DNA of 62,569 bases, filler included. It is 10 parts of 10 records of this genome, joined end to end, with 100 filler letters (N's around TTAATTAATTAA, not from the genome) between each part and the next. Parts side by side here need not be neighbours in the genome. Positions count along the whole stretch, not along the records: positions 45,954 to 50,973 come from SRR31147125_298585; 9 more parts are not named here. One strand, written 5' to 3'. The notes beneath the pieces were generated by a model. That model searched no databases, was not told the DNA's origin, and saw only the letters and a list, made by a program, of their open reading frames with translations. Both the position numbers and the translations under genes were made by a program. Below are positions 40,496 to 55,997 of this stretch, piece after piece; positions within the stretch are counted from its first letter, which is position 1, and the number at the start of each line of letters is the position of its first letter.

Positions 40496-40654
40496 CAATG
40501 GGTGTGGAAGACCGGCCATATGTTCCAGGCACCCTATTGGCTGATGCCTCCGGGCCTGTGCATTTCCCTGATCACCATGGCGTTTTACATGACCGGTCGG
40601 GCCATGGAGGATGTGCTGGACCCGCGACTGCGCAAGGAGGAGACCACGCCATGA
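40496..40654 (+). CDS. 3' end of a peptide/nickel ABC permease (DppC/OppC-like)
   Basis: YWLMPPGLCISLITMAFYMTGRAMEDVLDPRLR, with the stop overlapping the next ATG. Confidence 0.8.
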   Translation, partial: QWVWKTGHMFQAPYWLMPPGLCISLITMAFYMTGRAMEDVLDPRLRKEETTP

Positions 40655-41631
40655 CCCCCGCCCTCTTGGACGTCGACAACCTGTCCATCGGCTATCGTAC
40701 GGCCGACGGCACCCATCTGGCGGTGGATGATGTATCGTTTCGCCTGGAACGGGGCGGTTCCCTGGGGTTGGTGGGGGAATCGGGATGCGGCAAGACCACC
40801 ATCGGCATGGCCCTGATGGGGCTTCTGGCGCAAAATGCCACGCTTGTCTCCGGTCGGGCCCGGCTGGATGGCGAGGACCTGATGCGCGTCAGCGATGCCC
40901 GCATGCGCCAGATCCGCTGGCGTCATGTATCCATGATCTTCCAGGCAGCCATGAATGCCTTGAATCCGGTTCGTCGCATCGATGAGCAGATCGCCGAAGC
41001 CATCGTCACCCACGAACCCGAACTTACCACGCATGCCGTGATGCACCGTGTCCGGTCCCTGGCCACCCTGGTCAGAATCCCCGGGAACCGGATCCGGGAC
41101 TATCCCCATCAGTTTTCCGGCGGCATGCGCCAGCGCGTCATCATTGCCATGGCCCTGGCCTGCAATCCGTCGCTGATCATTGCCGACGAACCCACCACGG
41201 CCCTTGACGTGATCGTGCAGAATCAGATCCTGTCGGCCATCGCCACCTTCCAACGGGAGATGAACATCGGCATGATTTTCATCTCCCACGACATCGCCGT
41301 GGTGGCGGAAGTCTGCAGCCACTTAGGGGTCATGCACGCCGGCCGGTTGGTGGAGATCGGCACCCGGCGGGAGGTGTTGGATTGCCCGGGCCACCCCTAC
41401 ACGCGGATGCTGCTCGGCAGCCTGGTCACGTTGTCGGACGATCCCATTGATTTCTCGGGTGGAATGCACGTCGCGGATAAAAACGGAACACCCACCGGTG
41501 ATGGATGCAGCATCTGTCCGGTCTGCCCGGATGCAGAGGCCATCTGCCGGACGGCCCGCTCGCAATGGGTGGACCTGACCGCCACCCACCGCGTGCGCTG
41601 CACCCAGGCCGCAACACAGCATAAAGGATGA
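40651..41631 (+). CDS. Peptide ABC transporter ATPase (DppD/OppD-like)
   Basis: [31 protein letters not shown] and the Cys-containing oligo_HPY tail. Confidence 0.93.
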
Positions 41632-42612
41632 GCGCATTGCCCCCCATCGATCCTAAAATTGACCGAGGTGACCAAAGTCTATGACGCGCGTGAAGGGCTG
41701 TTTGGTCGGTCGGGGAATCGGGTGGTGGCCCTGGACCGCTTCAGCCTGGCCGTCCAGCCGGGAGAAATCTATGGCCTGGTGGGCGAAAGCGGCAGTGGCA
41801 AGACCACTGTCAGCCGCCTCATCGTGGGCCTGGAAAAACCCGACGGCGGGCAGATCCATTTCTCCGGTGAACCGATTGTCGGCCTTAGCGGTCGGCGTCG
41901 CAAGGCCTTTACCCGATCGCTACAGCTGATTTTCCAGGACCCCTACCAGAGTCTCAACGCCCATTTCTCCATTTTCGATGCGGTGTGCGAGCCGCTGGTG
42001 ATTCATCGCGTGGGCAATAGCGCCCAGCGTTTGGAAAAGGTATGCAACGCCCTGGAGATTGCCGGGCTGCGGCCACCGGCGTCCTTGTTGAACCGCTATC
42101 CCCACCAGCTCTCCGGCGGCCAGCGTCAACGGGTAGCCATCGCCCGGGCCATGGTGCTGGAGCCCGGTTTTCTGATTGCCGACGAGCCCACCTCCATGCT
42201 GGATGCGTCCATCTCGTTTCGGATTTTTCAGCTGTTGCACCGCTTGCGGGAGACGTTTTCCGTGACCATGTTGTTCATTACCCATAGTCTGGCCGCGGCC
42301 CGGCACCTGTGCGACCGCGTGGGCGTGATATATCAGGGACGGCTGGTGGAAGAGGGCACGGCCCGGGAGACCATTCTGAACCCTCGCCATCCCTACACCA
42401 AGGCGCTCCTGGAGGCGCATCCGCGCTTCGGCACTCGTGATCCGCGACCGTTGAGTACCCTGCTGGAGGAAGAGCGACCCGGACCGAGAGGCGCCCATTG
42501 TCCGTTTTACCCACGTTGCCGGATGGCCGTGGACAAGGTGTGCGATCGACGCGAGCCGCTTCTTCGACATCAGGTGGCCGGCCACCGGGTGGCCTGTTTT
42601 CTCTTTGAGTGA
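41628..42612 (+). CDS. Peptide ABC transporter ATPase (DppF/OppF-like); probable extra C in the run near 41640
   Basis: GESGSGKT, YPHQLSGGQRQR, ADEPTSMLD and HPYT..CPFYPRC..VACF. The ATG at 41628 is coupled to the upstream stop. Confidence 0.92.
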
Positions 42613-45772: not shown

Positions 45773-46076
45773 TGTCGGTTACATGGACAACCATTCGTCC
45801 ATGCCGGTCATGGACCGCTCGATAGGCCCGGGGTTGCCATCACCGGGGAAAAANNNNNNNNNNNNNNNNNNNNNNNNNNNNNNNNNNNNNNNNNNNNTTA
45901 ATTAATTAANNNNNNNNNNNNNNNNNNNNNNNNNNNNNNNNNNNNNNNNNNNNGGATAAAAAAGGGAAATCCCGGATCGACGCAATTGTCGGTCCGGGAT
46001 TTTTGCGTTTAGGGGGTAAGAATAGCGCGATATTGTGATGAAACCAAAGGAGAAGTGAAGATGAAATGTGGGGTGA

Positions 46077-48204
46077 ATGAGAAAAAATTACCATTTATTC
46101 AGAGTCTTATTCTGATTGGGGCGGCAGTTTTGCTGCTCAGCTGGGGGGGAAGAGTCATGCGTTGGCATCGGAGCGTACTTCCCATCAGCAGGTGGTTGAA
46201 CTGGAGCAGGTGGTGGTGACCGCCACCAGAAACGAAAAATCCCCGGATGAAGTGACCGCCGATGTCGACCTGGTGACGGCCCAAGAGATCAATGCCGCCC
46301 CGGCCAACAACGTCGATGATATTTTACGTCGTCTGGGCGGTGTGGATATCCGGCGGCCATCCGATTTCGGAATCACTTCGCCGATGGATATCACCATCCG
46401 AGGGGTGGGCGGTACCAAACGCACCCTTTTCATGGTGGACGGGGTTCCCGTCAACTCGGCCATTACCGGGTTTGTCTTCCCCAACATGCTTCAGATGCCC
46501 TCCATCGATCGGATCGAGGTGGTCAAAGGGGCGTTCTCTTCCCTGTACGGCAGTAACGCCATGGGCGGCGTGATCAATGTGATTACCAAAGAGCGAAAGA
46601 GTGAGGGAGTGGAATTTACGCCCATGGTGAAATCGGGGAACTTCGGCCTTTTCGAGGCGGGCGGATCCGTCTCCGGTCGCAGCGGAGCACTGGGATACTC
46701 TTTGAGTGCAAGCCATCGGCAGATCGACAATCACTATCGCCGGGACGAAAATGTAGACTACACCTTCAACCGCATGACCGGCGCCTTCACCAAAAGCTAT
46801 GAAGATGTCACCGAGCACTCGGAATATGACGATCAGCGTCTGTTTGCCAAATTCACCTATGACCTGTCCGACGATACGCGCATCACCTTCAGCGGCAACA
46901 CGGCTGAAACCATGTCGGAAATGGGAATGACCAGCTACCAGGATACGCCAAAGGAAGAGGACAGCGAGCATCGGTTCCACTTTCTAAACGTGAATGCCCG
47001 GACCGTCATTGCCGACAAGATCGACGTGGATGTACGTCTCTACACCAACTACGATCGTACCGATTCCAAGACCGAGCACATTTTGAAATTATCCGATAGC
47101 ACATCCGACACCGCCATGTCCGGCGAAATGGGAGGCAGCACCATGTCCGGAGGAATGTCCGGGATGGGGAGCATGGGAGGCGGCACCTATGAATACCTTT
47201 ACGGCAAAAGAAACCATAGAGGCCGGGACATCGGCTTTCAGGCCAAAGCCGGAATGGTCATCGGCGATCGCAACTATCTCACCGCAGGGGTCGATTCCAG
47301 CTTTGTGGACGGCTATTGGATCAACAGTCAAGAGGACGGCACCGTCATTGGCGATGCCATGGACGAATCCATTGACAATCAGGCGATCTATCTCCAGAAC
47401 GAATCCCAGCTCTTGGACGATCTCACGGTGACATTGGGTCTCAGATACGACATCAACTCCGAGTCCGAAGACTCGTTTTCTCCAAAAATCGGGGTGCTCT
47501 ATCGTCTCTCCGACCGCATCAGTTTTCGGACATCGGCAGGAAGGGCCTTCAGAGCTCCCAATCTCAACGAGCTCTACACGCCCACCTGGATGATGGTGGC
47601 GGGGGTCCCCTTTGAATCCAACCCGGATCTGGAGCCGGAGGTGGTGTGGTCTTACGATCTGGGCGCCCGAATCAAACTCACCGATCACTTGAACGTTCAT
47701 TGCACCGGTTTTTACTCCAAAGCCGAGGATCTCATCTCCAACCCCATCACCATGGGGGTCATGCGTTACGAAAACCTGGATGAAGTGGAGACCGACGGCT
47801 TTGAGACCGGCATCGAAGGGAATCTCTTTCCATGGCTCAATGTTTACCTCAACTATACTTACACCCATTCGGTGGACAAAGATAGCGGACGCCTCGAGGA
47901 TCAGCCCCTTCATCAAGGGAACGGCGGCATCATGCTGACCCATGCCTTCTCTTCCGACATCAAGATGACTGCCACATTGGATCTGCGCTACAACGGTGAG
48001 ATGGCTTATTCCGACATGATGACCGGCACGGCCATCGAGCTGGATGATTGGGTGGTGGCGGATTTGGGGGTTCGGTTTCAGCTCTTCGATCGCCTGGGGA
48101 TTCAGGCGGCAATGACCAATCTGTTTGACGAAGAGTACGAAATCCACGGTTCCAACCTGGGGCCGGAGCAGTGCTACTGGGTGGCCATGGATTACACCTT
48201 TTGA
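46077..48204 (+). CDS. TonB-dependent receptor with a Met-rich loop; signal-peptide region has apparent homopolymer indels
   Basis: TonB box EQVVVTATR, plug IDRIEVVKGAFSSLYGSNAMGGVINVITK, AFRAPNLNELY, NPDLEPE and C-terminal DYTF. Confidence 0.92.
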
Positions 48205-48221
48205 TGACAGGGAGCAGCGAT

Positions 48222-50009
48222 ATGCAGCGACAACAATCAGCAGAGAGCCGTCATCTTTTGTCGAGGATGACGGTTTTGATCACATTGTCAGTAATGGTAT
48301 CATTTTTCAACCCAAGCAATGTCGGGGCGTCTAATTTAGAAAAAGAGTTGGTTGTTGGCACCGGATGGGATGCCACTCGCCCCGGAGATTTTCAACCGTT
48401 GGGGATGTGGGAACCGGCTTGCCTCATCTACGAGACATTGGTCAATCTGGATCAGCAGAGTCAACCCGTTCCCTGCTTGGCAACGTCGTGGGAGGTTTCC
48501 GAGGATGGAAAAAACTATACCTTCCATCTCCAGGAAGGGGTCTGTTTTCACGATGGCACCTTTAGCGCCCAGGCCGTGAAGTTCAACTACGAGCGACTGG
48601 GACGCATCAACTGGCAGGCTGTCTCAAGAGCCGTGGATCGCGTGGTGGTTGTCGATCCGCTCACCATCCGGTTTACCCTGAAACGACCCGTTCCTCTCTT
48701 TTTCATCCATTTGGCAGGCAGCGGCTACGGGATTGTGGCCCCTTCGGTCATCTCCACACCATCGAACGCATCAAATACGTCTAAATCGATGCCTCCCAAA
48801 ATGTCCGGAATGGCCAAAATGGCCGGCAGTGAGAAGATGGCGGAAGTGTCGAATCCGATGGATCATGGCGTTAAGGCGGATCAGATGGATCAGACGACCC
48901 GGCTGGACAAGAAAATGCCCAAAGCGATGATGGCGGCCATGAAGAAGAAAGGGGTGAATATGGGGAAAGGCGCTACCGTCCCTCAGGTCGCCAAAGTGAC
49001 CGCCGCCATCGGAACAGGTCCTTTCAAGTGGGATGCGGATGGATACCGCCGGGCGCAATCCTTTTCAGTGGTCGAAAATGACGCATATTGGCAGGGAAAA
49101 CCGCGATTTGAGCGGATCACATGGAAAGTGATTCCCGATCCCGCCGCCCGAACCATCGCCCTTGAGACCGGAGAGATCCACCTTACCGGTCAATCTCCCA
49201 ATGCCTCTTTGACCGAGGAAAACATTCAAATCCTCGGCAGCAATCCCAATATAACACTCTCTCAATCGAAGAACTGGGGCAGCCGCCTGGTGCTCATCAA
49301 CCATACCCGTCCGCCGCTGGATAACCCGGATGTCAGAAAAGCCATTCAGATGGCCATGGACACCCGATCCATCCAGATGTTGTTTCAAAATATGGCCACG
49401 GTGTGTCCAGGTCCCTTTGGGCCGGATACGCCGTTGACCCACCCTGACATCGCTTTACCGGAATACAACCCCGATGCAGCTGGAAAGTTGTTGGATAAGG
49501 CAGGCGTGAAAGATAGCGATGGAGACGGTATCCGGGAGTTTGACGGAAAGCCGTTGACGATACGATTCACCGTTGCCAAGAGTCAGACCATGGCGGTTCT
49601 GGTGTGTGAATATCTCAAAAAGATCAGCATCGACGCCTCCATTCTCCCCAGAGAAAAGGGATCGATTTTCGAGATCCTGAAACAGATGGATTTCGATATG
49701 GCAGTGCACCCCAATATCCCGTCGTTCTATCTGGGACTCTATCACACCTTTCACACCAAAGGGCGATGGTCGGCCCGGTTTAATCTGCCAAAGTTGGATC
49801 GTTTGCTGGAACAGGGCGAGGCGGCAACGGATATGGATCAGTTCAAATCGCTGAGCCGTCAGGCCCAGAAGATGATTCACGATCAGCATATCATTTTGTT
49901 CGGCGTCAATGAGAGCAAAGTCGCCGCCAATACCAAAATGTTGGGAGCATTTTCTTTTCCGCCGGAGGAGTGGGTGGGAGCCATGCAGGATATCTGGAAG
50001 CGAAAGTAA
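48222..50009 (+). CDS. ABC substrate-binding protein, family 5 (NikA/DppA-like), with a Met/Lys-rich insertion
   Basis: IYETLV..PCLATSWEVSEDGKNYTFHL..GV.FHDG, IGTGPFK, YWQGKP and LDKAG..DSDGDGIRE. GGAG RBS upstream. Confidence 0.9.
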   Translation: MQRQQSAESRHLLSRMTVLITLSVMVSFFNPSNVGASNLEKELVVGTGWDATRPGDFQPLGMWEPACLIYETLVNLDQQSQPVPCLATSWEVSEDGKNYTFHLQEGVCFHDGTFSAQAVKFNYERLGRINWQAVSRAVDRVVVVDPLTIRFTLKRPVPLFFIHLAGSGYGIVAPSVISTPSNASNTSKSMPPKMSGMAKMAGSEKMAEVSNPMDHGVKADQMDQTTRLDKKMPKAMMAAMKKKGVNMGKGATVPQVAKVTAAIGTGPFKWDADGYRRAQSFSVVENDAYWQGKPRFERITWKVIPDPAARTIALETGEIHLTGQSPNASLTEENIQILGSNPNITLSQSKNWGSRLVLINHTRPPLDNPDVRKAIQMAMDTRSIQMLFQNMATVCPGPFGPDTPLTHPDIALPEYNPDAAGKLLDKAGVKDSDGDGIREFDGKPLTIRFTVAKSQTMAVLVCEYLKKISIDASILPREKGSIFEILKQMDFDMAVHPNIPSFYLGLYHTFHTKGRWSARFNLPKLDRLLEQGEAATDMDQFKSLSRQAQKMIHDQHIILFGVNESKVAANTKMLGAFSFPPEEWVGAMQDIWKRK

Positions 50010-50029
50010 AATGCACTGAATGGAACAAG

Positions 50030-50162
50030 TGACATCGTAATACCGAGAGGTGCGAGTAACACTTAAGCGAAATGAAGTCGCGTCGGGAGATTCGATGTCA
50101 TTTTGTCCTGGCAGACGGTCTGCCGGGATAGTTTAGAAGCTGTTTTGAAAATGACTTCTAAA
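50030..50162 (+). promoter_or_regulatory. Three consecutive inverted repeats upstream of the second TonB receptor (structured leader, terminator or operators)
   Basis: TGACATCG(50030-37)/CGATGTCA(50093-100); TCCTGGCAGA/TCTGCCGGGA (50106-50128); TTTAGAAG(50132-39)/CTTCTAAA(50155-62). Confidence 0.45.
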
Positions 50163-50202
50163 AGGAAAATAGAAAAAATCTTAACAAACGGAGTGGAAAA
50201 AG

Positions 50203-50973
50203 ATGAATCAGAAGTTGGAAAAATTTGAGTCCGGGAGAAAAATGAGAAAAAAGGGATCCATCCTAAACGTTACGCTGACAATCTTAGCGTTGGCTGCTTT
50301 TTGCAGCCCTGTTCCATGGGCTGTTGCATCATCAGATACTATTGAACTGCCGGAAACCACGGTAAAAGGAAGAAGGATCGAAGAGAGACTTTCTGCTGAG
50401 CTTGCTGAATACGGGCATAAAGTGGAGATTATCAATGCCGAGGAGATCAAAACCGGCGGATATACCGATATCAATCAAGTATTGGAGGCGCTGGTTCCAG
50501 GACTCTATATCAACTCCAAGAGCGGACGTGGCGATTATGTTCGAATGAGTCTTAACGGCGGGGATAACAAACGGGTCATTTTTCTCATCGACGGCGTTCG
50601 CCTAAACAATAGACTTTACGGCAAAGGCTATCTCGATACCGTGTCCCTTCAAATGATTGAAAGGATTGAAGTGTTGAAAAACGGTGAGGGCCTCTTTTAC
50701 GGTACAGACGGAACCTCCGGTGCCATCAATATTATCACAAAAAAAGTGACAAAAGCGCGTCATGGCAGCGTCGGTGCCGGATTTGGTAGCCACAAGGCAT
50801 CCGAAGCACATGGTATGATCTCCGAAACAATCAATGGCAACGGCTTTTTAGTATATGGATCCTACGACGGCTGGGAAGGATATCGTCCATTCAGGGATGA
50901 AGATTACGATCACATCGATGGGGCCAGCCGAAAAGATCGCGGGTATGATCGAAGCGCTCTTCTTGGAAAATTC
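50203..50973 (+). CDS. TonB-dependent receptor, N-terminal part (3' truncated; start 50203 or 50242)
   Basis: Signal peptide and plug LIDGVRLNNRLY..IERIEVLKNGEGLFYGTDGTSGAINIITK. Confidence 0.88.
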
Positions 50974-52736: not shown

Positions 52737-55700
52737 ATGCTCAAGTCCAAGCTGACCATCCCCCACCTATCGCGGATATTCCAGCGGCCGCGACTGCATG
52801 GCCTGCTTCGGCGGCTGGCCGAGAAGCGGTTAACCCTCGTCGTGGGGGGCGCAGGCTATGGCAAGACCACATTGGTTGCCAATGCCCTCCGGCGGCGGAA
52901 ACGCAAGGCGGTTTGGTACCACCTCGATGAAACCGATCGGGATTTTTCAACCTTTATCGCCTACCTGCTGCATGGCTTCCAACCGTATCTGAACGGCGAG
53001 GATGAAATCCTCGCCGCCCTCCGGTCGGCCTTGCGCCTGTCCGTTCCACAGCGCCTGGAAATCCTCGAAAGACTGATCCATCAGTTGGAGCAAACAATCG
53101 ATTTTGAGTTGCTTCTCGTTCTGGATGACTTCCACCTGATTCAAGATACACCCGAGATCTGTGAATCCATCGAGTTCCTGCTCAAACACCTGCCGGCCGT
53201 CATTCACCTGGTCCTTGTTTCGAGGGTCGAGCCGGCCATCCGCATCTCCAGACTGCGGGTCATGGACGAGGTCGCCGAAGTTCATGAATCGGATATGACC
53301 TTCACCCTTGAAGAGATCCAAGGGCTGGCCGCAGACGTGTTCAATCTTCGATTGGGGCCCGCCATTCTGAAACAGATTCAGGCGAAAACAAGAGGGTGGG
53401 CCGCCAGTCTGGTTTTGTTCTTCCTCGTATTAAGGGGCAAGACCGGTGAAGCGGTTGAGAGCCAGTTGGAGGGCATCACCGGCTCCCACAGGTTGATTTT
53501 TGCATACCTGGAGGAAAATGTTTTCGAGTCCCAATCCCCTTTTGTCAAAGAATTCATGATGAAAACGGCGCTTCTCGATAAACTCGATCCCGGGTTTTGC
53601 GACGCTTATCTTGGCATACACCGATCGCGGGCACTGCTCGAACAACTGACCGCCGATCACCTGTTGACCCAAAAAAATGAGTCCGGGGATCTGTATGCCT
53701 ATCATCACCTGCTCAAAGAATTTCTGCTAACCAGACTGCGCAAGGCCACCGACGATAACATGCTTAAGGACCTGTGCCTGAAAATCGCCCGTTTGTTGGA
53801 TGAAAAGGGCGATGATATTGCCGCCATTCAGTATTATTTGGATGCAGACGAATTTCCCCTCGCCGCCCGGCGCCTATACGATGCCGGGGAAAGGCTGTTT
53901 CAAACCGGTCAACTCAACCGTATCCGCGCTTTTCTCGACCGGTTTCCACAAACCATGATCGCATCTGTGCCCGGGCTCCTATATATCAATGCCAAAATGC
54001 GGTCATTCTCGGGCGACCCGCTTGGCGCAATATCTCTATTCAACAGGGCCCTGGACGGCTTCCAAAGGGAAACGTCCGATGCGCGGGTAATGGATTGCCA
54101 GATCAACCTGGGCCTGAACTATTACTATACGGGGCATATCAAAGAGGCCGAAACCTACCTGGAGAACTGCCTGAAAACCGGGGGCGGCATGCGAACCCTT
54201 GAAATCACCGGCTTGTTGATCATGATTCCCGCCATTCTAGGCAACGCGGCCAAGGCCGATGCCTATGCCGGCATGGCCCGTGAGGTCTTGGGCGGCCTCG
54301 GCGGGCCGGTGAAACGGCAGATGGAGACATGGATTACGTTTTGCCTGAGTTATCGTTTGTTTTGTGCGGGAAACTTCAAGCGGGCCTATGATCTGGGGCT
54401 GGATGCCTTCAGGTGTTTTGCAAACAGCGATCAAACGAAGGTGATTATGCCGCTTGCCAGTCTCCACGTGGCCCTGCCCGCCTATTTTCTGGGACAACCG
54501 CGAACGGGACTCGGTCATGCGCAGAAAGGGCTTGAGCGGCTCGAACAGATGGAGATCCAGGACAACCAGGTCGGATGGCTGAACTATGCGGCCGCATTGA
54601 ACCTGAGCGGGATCGGCCGCATGGATGAGGCCCTGGCCCACGCACGCACCAGCCTCGAGCTGTTCTTACGACAATCCTGTTACTGGGGCCAGGCCACGGT
54701 TCACGACCTGATGCATTTCATCCATCGTAAAATGGGAGCCCCCGACGCTGCAACGCGCGATCTGGATAAGGGCTTCAGGGTGCTTGAGAACACGGATCTG
54801 CCCTTCACCCGGGCCATTCTTGAAATCGGCCGGCTGAGCATGCTGATCGACGACAAACAGCTCGATGGCGTCCAGGAGCGTCTGGAAACGGTAAGCGATA
54901 ACCTCAACGGTTCACTTTTTTACACCTTCAAGGCCCGGTTGTTGTCCGCCAAGCTGAAGTGGTATCGCCAAGATCCTGTCCGTGCCCGGGCATATCTGCG
55001 GACGGCGGTCCATATGGCCGATAAACACGGCTATCGGCACCAGCTTGCCAATCATGCCGGTTGGGTCGCTGCGCTGATCGCGGCACTACCCGACAGCGCC
55101 ACCGATCAGCCCTGGATGCGGCGCGTTCTCGATATCCAGAAGAAACAATCGAGCCGGGATGCTGTCGCTGATCATCCGTTCCACGGAGCGGAAAAAACCG
55201 CGACGGCGGCCTTGGTCGAGCGCCGGCCGGCTCCCGGAATCAGAATTTGCCTGCTGGGCCATTTCAATATCAAGATGGGCAATCAAGACCATCCCCTGGA
55301 GGACTTGAAAAATGCCAAAGCACGCATGATGATCAAGTATCTGGCGGCGATGCACAACCATGGTTTTATTCACCGGGACGAAATCATCGAGCTTTTATGG
55401 CCGGAAGAGGATTTCAATAAAACCCGTAAACGGTTCAATGTTGCCGTCAGCGCCATCCGGAAGTTTTTTGAACCGCAGATCAGGCGTGGCCAGCCCTCCG
55501 CATACCTTAAAAAACAGGGTGTCTCATTCAAGTTGGACCCGGGCGATGGCGGGGGAATCGATGTCCATGATTTTTTAGACCGGATCAAAAAGGGAAATCG
55601 CAGCCGTGATCCGGGGCAAGCCATCCATCACTATCTGGCCGCTCAACGGGTCTATGGCGGCCCATTTCTTGTCGAGGACCCCTATACGCAGTGGTGCCGT

Positions 55701-55997
55701 GATGAAAGACGGAGCCTGCAACACAGGTATTTATCCGTGTTGTGGAAGATTATCGGCCATTATCATGATGAACAGGATTACGCCAATGGCATCTTGTATG
55801 CCGATCAATATCTTGGTGTCGACGACAGCGCCGAGCACGTTTACCAAAAGCTCATGGCGTTTCACGCGATGGCCGGCAACCGATCGGAAATCAAAAAAGT
55901 GTTCGAGACCTGCAAGCGGGTGGTCTCCGATTCGCTGGATTGCCCACTGCATCCCAAAACGATGGATCTCTATCGTTCCCTGCTCCAGCAAACCTGA
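52737..55997 (+). CDS. MalT-like STAND ATPase transcription regulator with TPR repeats and C-terminal DNA-binding/BTAD (SARP-like) domains
   Basis: SKLTIP..RPRL, Walker A GGAGYGKT, Walker B LVLDDFH, TRGWAASL, YAYHHLLKEFL, TPRs, HRDEIIELLWP and YGGPFL..PYTQWC..ER. Confidence 0.9.
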   Translation: MLKSKLTIPHLSRIFQRPRLHGLLRRLAEKRLTLVVGGAGYGKTTLVANALRRRKRKAVWYHLDETDRDFSTFIAYLLHGFQPYLNGEDEILAALRSALRLSVPQRLEILERLIHQLEQTIDFELLLVLDDFHLIQDTPEICESIEFLLKHLPAVIHLVLVSRVEPAIRISRLRVMDEVAEVHESDMTFTLEEIQGLAADVFNLRLGPAILKQIQAKTRGWAASLVLFFLVLRGKTGEAVESQLEGITGSHRLIFAYLEENVFESQSPFVKEFMMKTALLDKLDPGFCDAYLGIHRSRALLEQLTADHLLTQKNESGDLYAYHHLLKEFLLTRLRKATDDNMLKDLCLKIARLLDEKGDDIAAIQYYLDADEFPLAARRLYDAGERLFQTGQLNRIRAFLDRFPQTMIASVPGLLYINAKMRSFSGDPLGAISLFNRALDGFQRETSDARVMDCQINLGLNYYYTGHIKEAETYLENCLKTGGGMRTLEITGLLIMIPAILGNAAKADAYAGMAREVLGGLGGPVKRQMETWITFCLSYRLFCAGNFKRAYDLGLDAFRCFANSDQTKVIMPLASLHVALPAYFLGQPRTGLGHAQKGLERLEQMEIQDNQVGWLNYAAALNLSGIGRMDEALAHARTSLELFLRQSCYWGQATVHDLMHFIHRKMGAPDAATRDLDKGFRVLENTDLPFTRAILEIGRLSMLIDDKQLDGVQERLETVSDNLNGSLFYTFKARLLSAKLKWYRQDPVRARAYLRTAVHMADKHGYRHQLANHAGWVAALIAALPDSATDQPWMRRVLDIQKKQSSRDAVADHPFHGAEKTATAALVERRPAPGIRICLLGHFNIKMGNQDHPLEDLKNAKARMMIKYLAAMHNHGFIHRDEIIELLWPEEDFNKTRKRFNVAVSAIRKFFEPQIRRGQPSAYLKKQGVSFKLDPGDGGGIDVHDFLDRIKKGNRSRDPGQAIHHYLAAQRVYGGPFLVEDPYTQWCRDERRSLQHRYLSVLWKIIGHYHDEQDYANGILYADQYLGVDDSAEHVYQKLMAFHAMAGNRSEIKKVFETCKRVVSDSLDCPLHPKTMDLYRSLLQQT

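Follow-up and report, generated by a model that had tools for sequence, protein, structure and literature searches.

Methionine-rich segments in a TonB-dependent receptor and an adjacent NikA-type binding protein: a probable B12-repressed import module with cobalt as candidate cargo

The window analysed here is a stretch of 62.6 kilobases (kb) in which a linker scan showed ten contigs in a chain, not one stretch of a genome. Its piece at 45954-50973 carries three genes on the plus strand, namely a TonB-dependent receptor, a family-5 (NikA-type) periplasmic binding protein and the start of a second TonB-dependent receptor, and the first two of these proteins contain disordered segments rich in methionine (Met). 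We find that the receptor and the binding protein very probably form part of an import module repressed by vitamin B12. The reading that we favour, with no more than moderate confidence, is that the module belongs to an operon of a Desulfobacterales-type anaerobe that imports cobalt, as the ion or as a small chelate, and that the Met-rich segments act as arms that hand over the cargo. Functionally, the system resembles a Nik-type importer of metal chelates that has its own outer-membrane receptor and is controlled by B12, a kind of system that has been predicted already.

When B12 is short, the terminator of an adenosylcobalamin riboswitch would be read through and the operon transcribed. The receptor would then carry cobalt across the outer membrane (most likely Co(II), bound in a small chelate or in a thiol or sulfide complex), the binding protein would pass it to the ABC permease, and the linked chelatase would use it for cobamide synthesis. 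The disordered Met-rich segments may be flexible, thioether-rich arms for capture and hand-over, one in an extracellular loop of the receptor, one in an insert of the binding protein and a third, in relatives, in the N-terminal part of the chelatase.

The genomic context was taken from the piece at 45954-50973 only (5,020 bases), and the DNA beyond either linker was excluded. The main features are as follows (aa, amino acids).

45965..46004, plus strand: predicted terminator, formed by a hairpin of 17 bp and the U-rich tail behind it (fold energy -28.9 kcal/mol, z -5.4)
46061..48204, plus strand: TonB-dependent receptor gene, with signal peptide, TonB box, plug and a barrel ending in YTF
47083..47187, plus strand: variable Gly/Ser/Met loop LKLSDSTSDTAMSGEMGGSTMSGGMSGMGSMGGGT of the receptor, 35 aa, disordered, predicted to be extracellular
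47581..47595, plus strand: conserved PTWMM motif of the receptor (W476 and M478 in 46/46 subfamily members), within a long loop predicted to be extracellular
48204..50009, plus strand: gene of the family-5 (NikA-type) periplasmic solute-binding protein, starting at ATG 48204 or 48222
48747..49007, plus strand: Met/Lys-rich segment of the binding protein, 87 aa between GIVAPS and IGTGPF, with 12 Met and 13 Lys, disordered

The operon context was examined in 13 related loci from species-representative genomes and metagenomes (L014, a partial match at 24% identity, was left out and entered only in the scan for Met-dense stretches described below). The order of genes that recurs, as assigned with Pfam, is receptor, binding protein, two NikB/C-type permeases, two NikD/E-type ATPases and a CobN/ChlH-type chelatase of ~1,250 residues. 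The receptor gene adjoins the binding-protein gene in 7/13 loci (L001, L002, L005, L006, L010, L011 and L012), which supports the coupled outer-membrane-to-periplasm import pair put forward in the original prediction, and the chelatase was found in all eight loci that reach past the ATPases (L003, L004, L005, L006, L007, L009, L012 and L013). In L001, an ExbB-ExbD-TonB-CbiK cluster lies immediately upstream of the operon. The relatives are Desulfobacterales, e.g. Desulfosarcina and Desulfobacterium, in agreement with the earlier assignment to a probable sulfate reducer.

Cobalamin aptamers (Rfam RF00174, 33-123 bits) were detected in 9/10 related loci with upstream DNA; in L002-L004 this DNA is cut off, and these loci stand outside the count. 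In L001, L005, L006, L010 and L011 the aptamer immediately precedes the receptor gene, and in L007, L008, L009 and L013, where the receptor is elsewhere, it immediately precedes the binding-protein gene. Further cobalamin riboswitches are located 5' of neighbouring receptors and of the L005 chelatase.

The first 57 bases of the window's piece correspond to the conserved terminator hairpin seen after the aptamers of the relatives. A consensus terminator scan of the leader gave no match, though folding gives the 17-bp hairpin listed above; this hairpin aligns with hairpins 40-50 bases past the aptamers of L001, L006 and L011, and the leader shared with these loci is GGATAAAA..GGGAAATCCCGG. In the public run from which a comparison contig was taken (see below), the first 30 bases are common to a second contig, whose sequence goes on into a variant form of this hairpin, and a short unitig at the leader has the summed depth; the break in the assembly thus falls exactly here, within an element present in two copies. 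The window thus appears to keep the expression platform of a cobalamin riboswitch, the aptamer probably having been lost at the contig edge.

Two other riboswitch-associated regions of the related loci are recorded here as side observations. An odd B12-regulated pair of genes at L006:3888-5476, consisting of a Cytochrom_C_asm-family (CcsA-like, heme-handling) gene and an unassigned open reading frame (ORF) of 281 aa, is preceded by a cobalamin riboswitch at L006:3466-3643 (113 bits). In Desulfosarcina variabilis (L009:536-8776, minus strand), several TonB receptor genes and the gene of a DUF4198 periplasmic protein adjoin the operon and stand behind two further cobalamin riboswitches.

The receptor gene starts at ATG 46061, not at 46077, with a signal peptide homologous to that of its closest relative, P0123, and its body frame spans 46162-48204. 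The matches to Pfam PF07715 (Plug, 86 bits) and PF00593 (TonB_dep_Rec_b-barrel, 163 bits) were both above the cut-off; the motif QVVVTATR is conserved (the TonB box was assigned by eye) and the C-terminus is YTF. The AlphaFold2 model, obtained with a 53-sequence alignment, has a predicted local distance difference test score (pLDDT) of 87.7 and is confident except for residues 313-340. Its best fold match with Foldseek is Escherichia coli BtuB (E 1.7e-39, template modelling (TM) score 0.87-0.90, 20% identity), and among NCBIfam models the receptor scores best with TonB-hemin and TonB-B12, in either case below the cut-off. Matches of ~100 bits, far below the cut-off, were also obtained for 46162-48204 with the NCBIfam selenocysteine-motif TonB models TonB_dep_CU, PCPU, PUIUD and FCYXU; no in-frame TGA was seen in this region.

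The receptor loop with six Met noticed in the original prediction is present at 47083-47187; its 35 aa also include 10 Gly and 8 Ser, and Met makes up 3.6% of the remainder of the protein (binomial P=0.0014). Residues 313-340 have pLDDT below 50, and the loop connects the longest two strands (287-309 and 343-367). Since the strand count is odd from either end of the loop and the turns of the opposite parity are all of 2-5 residues, the loop was placed outside the cell, a prediction made from the DSSP strand order of the AlphaFold2 model, not from coordinates. The receptor has ~45 close relatives, and 50 aligned sequences were used for the loop survey. The loop holds at least two Met in 18/50 of them, mostly as MGG-type repeats; many relatives carry a fixed 10-residue IDNPAPFGPP instead, and the span ranges from 7 to 70 aa. 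Four Met outside the loop are conserved in the subfamily (n=46) fully or in part, namely M478 (46/46), M620 (37/46), M400 (37/46) and M534 (32/46), and all four are placed in predicted outer loops or at the tops of strands. The WMM, TMGVM and DMM motifs pointed out earlier in other loops do exist; of their Met, only M478, M620 and M534 are conserved in the subfamily.

The binding protein matches Pfam PF00496 (SBP_bac_5, 237 bits), and the family-5 type assigned to it earlier stands; the distance of 17 bp from the receptor gene may not, since comparison of the N-terminus with P0003 showed that a start at 48204, overlapping the receptor stop by one base, is possible instead of 48222. Its best solved relatives, by both sequence and fold, are the NikA proteins of E. 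coli and Brucella (22-23% identity; sequence E 2e-60; Foldseek TM score 0.79-0.84, target-normalised). The AlphaFold2 model (30-sequence alignment) has a pLDDT of 79 and is confident except for residues 182-253. M27 and W100 of NikA have invariant equivalents in 30/30 family members, the R97 equivalent is kept in 10/30, and the equivalents of R137 and W398 are not kept.

The insert described earlier just before IGTGPF, with 12 Met and many Lys, was likewise found, and comprises 87 aa with 13 Lys. Its Met content stands against 3.0% Met elsewhere in the binding protein (P=1e-5), residues 182-253 within it have pLDDT below 50, and the segment exceeds that of ordinary NikA-like proteins by ~72 aa. 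In six NikA-like outgroup proteins, this site comprises 11-16 aa with 0-1 Met, as expected from the statement that family-5 proteins normally lack such an insert. The insert family was defined as 29 homologues (E at most 1e-144; the next matches drop to 1e-61). At least two Met are present at the insert site in 27/29 of them (P0021 has one and P0016, with a segment of 21 aa, none), the span ranges from 21 to 188 aa, and the pooled inserts contain 203 Met in 1,699 residues (12%) vs 1.2-3.6% in the rest of the same proteins; the inserts are rich in Lys as well and contain hardly any His. Met enrichment in close homologues, on which the earlier claim depended, is accordingly general for the binding protein and not universal for the receptor loop (18/50). 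In a profile search of 1.84 billion representative proteins, the family amounted to no more than 3-4 clusters (50% identity), three of them above 800 bits. A distant member, P0244, has a 71-aa insert with 9 Met, and ten other near-family representatives that were aligned have 6-15 aa and no Met.

Two members of the insert family are recorded as further side observations. The insert of P0006 (L010:4290-6353) is 188 aa long with 27 Met in about six tandem units of ~17 aa (...NGKPxGMxMPRNMxE...), a pattern that shows apparent expansion by repeat duplication. L008, labelled as an uncultured Spirochaetales bacterium, has a 98-aa Gly/Ser/Met insert with 12 Met and its own cobalamin riboswitch; the presence of a family member in a genome labelled as another phylum suggests lateral transfer or mis-binning.

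The Met counts of the partner proteins were compared in pairs. Seven same-locus pairs gave counts (binding protein/receptor) of 12/6, 3/0, 2/0, 6/6, 10/6, 27/8 and 2/0 (rho 0.93). With the addition of eight pairs inferred from contigs of equal length (n=15), the Spearman correlation between receptor loop and binding-protein insert was 0.60 (P=0.018). In these statistics L012 was merged with L002 (identical inserts), and the L007 receptor, which lies elsewhere in the locus and was matched in two pieces, was left out. The counts in the two proteins co-vary, which is suggestive and not proof, as relatedness inflates the correlation.

A third protein of the same route shows the bias. A Met-dense stretch (at least 5 Met/30 aa) was present in 28/196 ORFs of the window and 14 loci, and 20 of the 28 encode a receptor (4), a binding protein (8) or an operon-linked chelatase (8/8), the other eight being mostly membrane permeases. 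All eight operon-linked CobN/ChlH-like chelatases carry an N-terminal Met/Lys-dense stretch with 5-8 Met/30 aa (e.g. ...MNLDRMMKM), near residues 115-170 of about 1250, and this stretch was not covered when the chelatase was aligned to solved CobN, ChlH and HmuS. Because the bias is common to three successive proteins of one route, the Met-rich segments probably deal with the cargo, whatever its nature. The Met-dense, operon-linked chelatases are located as follows.

L003:4172-7456
L005:10400-14155, minus strand
L006:15008-18754, minus strand
L007:15044-18931
L009:15105-18875
L012:8278-10794
L013:6718-9234
L004:5392-6819

Some side observations on the chelatases may be added. The second CobN of L006 (18905-21514) has no Met-dense stretch. 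Genomes G001-G004 (Desulfobacterales, reached via L006, L009, L007 and L005) contain 6-17 matches to the CobN/Mg-chelatase family and several ChlI/ChlD-like genes, an expansion of class-I chelatases that is unusual for non-phototrophs; the operon-linked chelatases score lowest against the Pfam model in these genomes (about 970-995 bits vs up to 1,338).

Several lines of evidence argue for cobalt as the cargo. The binding protein is NikA-like with invariant equivalents of M27 and W100. The last gene of the operon encodes the large subunit of a class-I chelatase that retains the ChlH/CobN motifs (528 bits for ChlH, 414 for CobN and 330 for HmuS), and ChlI/ChlD-like partners exist in the carrier genomes. 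The carriers, moreover, are likely to be de novo cobamide producers that use the anaerobic pathway and need cobalt, since CbiD was found in 5/5 of the operon-carrying genomes searched and CbiK, above the cut-off, in 4/5. B12-riboswitch-preceded NikABCDE homologues were read as cobalt transporters earlier, in passages of PMC2667541; those of Clostridium tetani and Desulfitobacterium hafniense are alike in that a Nik-type ABC system is placed under B12 control (same passages), and differ in that these bacteria are Gram-positive, an outer-membrane receptor being assumed to be lacking.

Several observations weigh against the cobalt reading or limit its support. Downstream of the binding-protein gene, the window has a second receptor gene where the relatives have permeases. 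No aptamer was found in the window (Rfam gathering threshold, and E up to 10 within 45954-46200), probably because the contig starts only 107 nucleotides (nt) before the receptor ATG, and no riboswitch was found (Rfam) in the leader of ~390 nt of L012. CbiM-type transporters are present in 4/4 carrier genomes searched; the system is therefore not needed to explain the entry of cobalt, and an argument that no other cobalt transporter exists was rejected. The binding protein reaches 192.5 bits vs a cut-off of 393 for TIGR02294 (NikA equivalog), and the receptor likewise falls below the cut-off for TIGR01779 (BtuB equivalog; 188.7 bits vs 599.7). The equivalent of the NikA metal ligand His416 is His in 17/30 family members, among them the binding protein of the window (H511), and Ser in 12/30. 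The Met loop of the receptor is missing in 32/50 relatives, with at least seven state changes on a tree built without the loop columns. The co-occurrence of the two inserts, which the original prediction had implied, holds as a correlation and has one clear exception, the inferred pair P0031/P0149, with 11 Met in the binding protein and 0 in the receptor; the correlation also overstates independence, since related sequences share traits. Thioethers, finally, are poor ligands of Co(II).

The main rival of the cobalt reading, possible although on balance unlikely, is that the cargo is a corrinoid or another cobalt tetrapyrrole. The Met thioethers would then be transient axial ligands, passing the macrocycle on as has been proposed for heme and HmuS, and the linked CobN-like protein would remove, exchange or re-insert the metal. 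The match to BtuB as best fold is in line with this, although such a resemblance is common to all TonB receptors; the two sub-threshold NCBIfam models are in line with it as well, and riboswitch-controlled TonB receptors are classically B12 importers in the relevant passages of PMC7689651. The strongest support comes from HmuS, a CobN homologue beside a TonB receptor, with a disordered, length-variable Met-rich insertion and a Met ligand to heme (as described in part of PMC12583661), to be set beside the Met-dense stretch in all eight operon-linked CobN-like proteins. The chelatases are nearer to ChlH and CobN than to HmuS, however, with the chelatase motifs kept, and their Met stretch is not at the HmuS site (780-898). 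NikA, too, is stated in a passage of PMC2667541 to bind heme, while the binding protein here is of family 5 and not of the BtuF type used for corrinoids. The host genomes, in addition, look like those of de novo producers.

A related and more far-reaching proposal, which we regard as unlikely, is that Met-rich arms are a general device of anaerobes for passing metal-tetrapyrroles from protein to protein, and that the operon is the cobalt counterpart of Bacteroides hmu, harvesting cobalt by dechelation. If this were true, a shortage of B12 would lead to import of foreign corrinoids or cobalt tetrapyrroles via the two arm-bearing proteins, and the divergent CobN/ChlH-like enzyme would strip or exchange their cobalt; such harvesting would suit sulfidic habitats, in which sulfide ties up the free cobalt.

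It is also improbable that the Met-rich tracts have no ligand function and are low-complexity expansions that arose by repeat slippage and are tolerated because they lie in surface loops, or spacers or redox buffers. Their length and sequence are highly variable in both proteins (21-188 and 7-70 aa), some are internally repetitive like the ~17-aa units of P0006, at least seven gains or losses of the receptor loop have occurred, and the segment of P0016 contains no Met at all. Against this, the composition is kept though the sequence is not (12% Met in the pooled inserts), the same bias is found in three proteins of one pathway and in few others, the Met counts co-vary between the partners, and the distant P0244 also has the insert, whereas the ten other near-family representatives lack Met.

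The copper site of OprC and NosA is built of Cys, His and Met (CxxxM and HxM). A relay for uptake of Cu(I) or another soft metal, in which the Met-rich tracts bind Cu(I) as in OprC, CueO and Ctr1 and which was the claim of the original prediction, is very improbable in spite of MxxM and MGGM tracts that would be chemically competent for Cu(I)/Ag(I) and of several conserved Met (M478, M620, M534 and M400) in receptor loops predicted to be extracellular. Cobalamin riboswitches control the operon in 9/10 related loci, and its partners are a CobN-type chelatase (8/8) and, beside the operon in L001, CbiK. The neighbourhood holds permeases, ATPases and the chelatase, and Pfam scans of 117 neighbouring ORFs gave no hit to a copper-related family. 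No Cys reaches conservation in at least 90% of the 53 aligned receptors or in at least 39/46 subfamily barrels, OprC stands at Foldseek rank 49 with 14% identity and is not among the best 60 of 67 sequence matches of the receptor, and the inserts hold almost no His.

The system was also compared with characterised ones. The similarity to E. coli NikABCDE lies in the family-5 fold, NikA being the best solved relative, and in the NikB/C/D/E-type partners that follow in the relatives. E. coli NikA is a Ni-(L-His)2 binding protein. Regulation of E. coli nikABCDE is by NikR, as given in passages of PMC2667541; here, a B12 riboswitch is present in the relatives, the binding protein is preceded by its own TonB receptor, and it carries the Met/Lys insert of ~72 aa. 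BtuB and other riboswitch-controlled TonB transporters are alike in size, fold and, in the relatives, cobalamin-riboswitch control, and differ in the 20% identity, in the NikA-type instead of BtuF-type partner and in the Met/Gly/Ser extracellular loop. Some TonB receptors were predicted to be cobalt-specific, and none had been confirmed according to the passages on them in a 2021 review (PMC7689651).

The HmuS insertion is the closest published parallel to the inserts. In the sections concerned of PMC12583661, this disordered, low-complexity, length-variable, Met-rich insertion is a hallmark of the family by which HmuS differs from true chelatases, and a possible role of it is to deliver heme to a Met/His site. 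Bacteroides HmuYRSTUV shares with the present system a TonB receptor and a CobN-family enzyme in an anaerobe. It differs in that the insertion belongs to domain IV of the chelatase-like enzyme, the metal is heme iron and there is no family-5 binding protein, whereas here the inserts are in the receptor and the binding protein, B12 control is seen and there is no hmu operon; the resemblance is in kind only. The Cnt systems (the staphylopine binding protein CntA and the pseudopaline receptor CntO) likewise use a family-5 protein or a TonB receptor for metal-metallophore complexes, including those of cobalt; CntA scores 145 bits, far below its cut-off of 800, and CntO 105 bits, and no opine synthase gene was found among the Pfam hits of the related loci. 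The copper receptors OprC and NosA resemble the receptor as TonB-dependent proteins with Met on the outer side, and differ from it in the points of Cys and fold given above and in a copper or denitrification context in place of the B12 context.

The remaining features of the stretch are as follows.

46143-46149, plus strand: run of seven G (G7), with a frame shift between the signal peptide and the mature receptor (three-frame translation vs P0123)
50203..50973, plus strand: N-terminal 257 aa of a second TonB-dependent receptor (Plug, 69 bits), cut by the contig end
5475-5574, 11739-11838, 18650-18749, 24702-24801, 31803-31902, 40396-40495, 45854-45953, 50974-51073 and 56436-56535: artificial linkers N44-TTAATTAATTAA-N44 (nine in all), marking contig breaks

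In each linker, TTAATTAATTAA is a six-frame stop linker between two 44-N runs. Because the window consists of separate contigs glued together, neighbourhoods across the linkers are artificial. The ABC ATPases at 40498-42612 were considered as the missing NikD/E and were rejected, being in another contig piece and 29-39% identical to the operon ATPases of the relatives; they are generic Opp/Dpp paralogues as judged by similarity. An AAA-TPR-BTAD regulator at 52737-55997 is also in another piece, and hence gives no context for the receptor and binding-protein pair. The second receptor, which had been reported to follow the pair, starts 193 bases past the binding-protein gene, is ~30% identical to the relatives of the first receptor and has TonB-B12 as its best NCBIfam match (80 bits, below the cut-off).

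The comparison contig of 11.5 kb from the public run, which runs 6.4 kb further downstream, contains 98% of the sampled words of the stretch and may be the window's own source, so that it does not count as independent evidence for the whole sequence. At the 46143-46149 run it has eight G (G8), and because this extra G restores a single intact receptor frame, the shift in the window is most likely a homopolymer assembly error; variation in run length is a less likely alternative. At 48542-48560 in the binding-protein gene, at about residues 107-113 and outside the Met-rich insert, the contig has C>T, T>C and three extra in-frame bases.

In a search of the full-text literature, most subscription journals lying outside its scope, no description was found of Met-rich inserts in receptors or binding proteins under B12 control, or of a receptor-Nik-CobN operon, and the Met-rich disordered arms in a B12-regulated uptake setting appear to be new. 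A Met-rich tract alone is insufficient as a signature of copper. The small family described here provides a candidate for a cobalt-specific outer-membrane receptor with clear regulatory evidence. It bears Met-rich disordered segments on up to three successive proteins, the receptor at the surface, the carrier in the periplasm and the chelatase in the cytoplasm, and this pattern points to a hand-over mechanism undescribed for cobalt or corrinoids, with a link to the unexplained insertion of HmuS.

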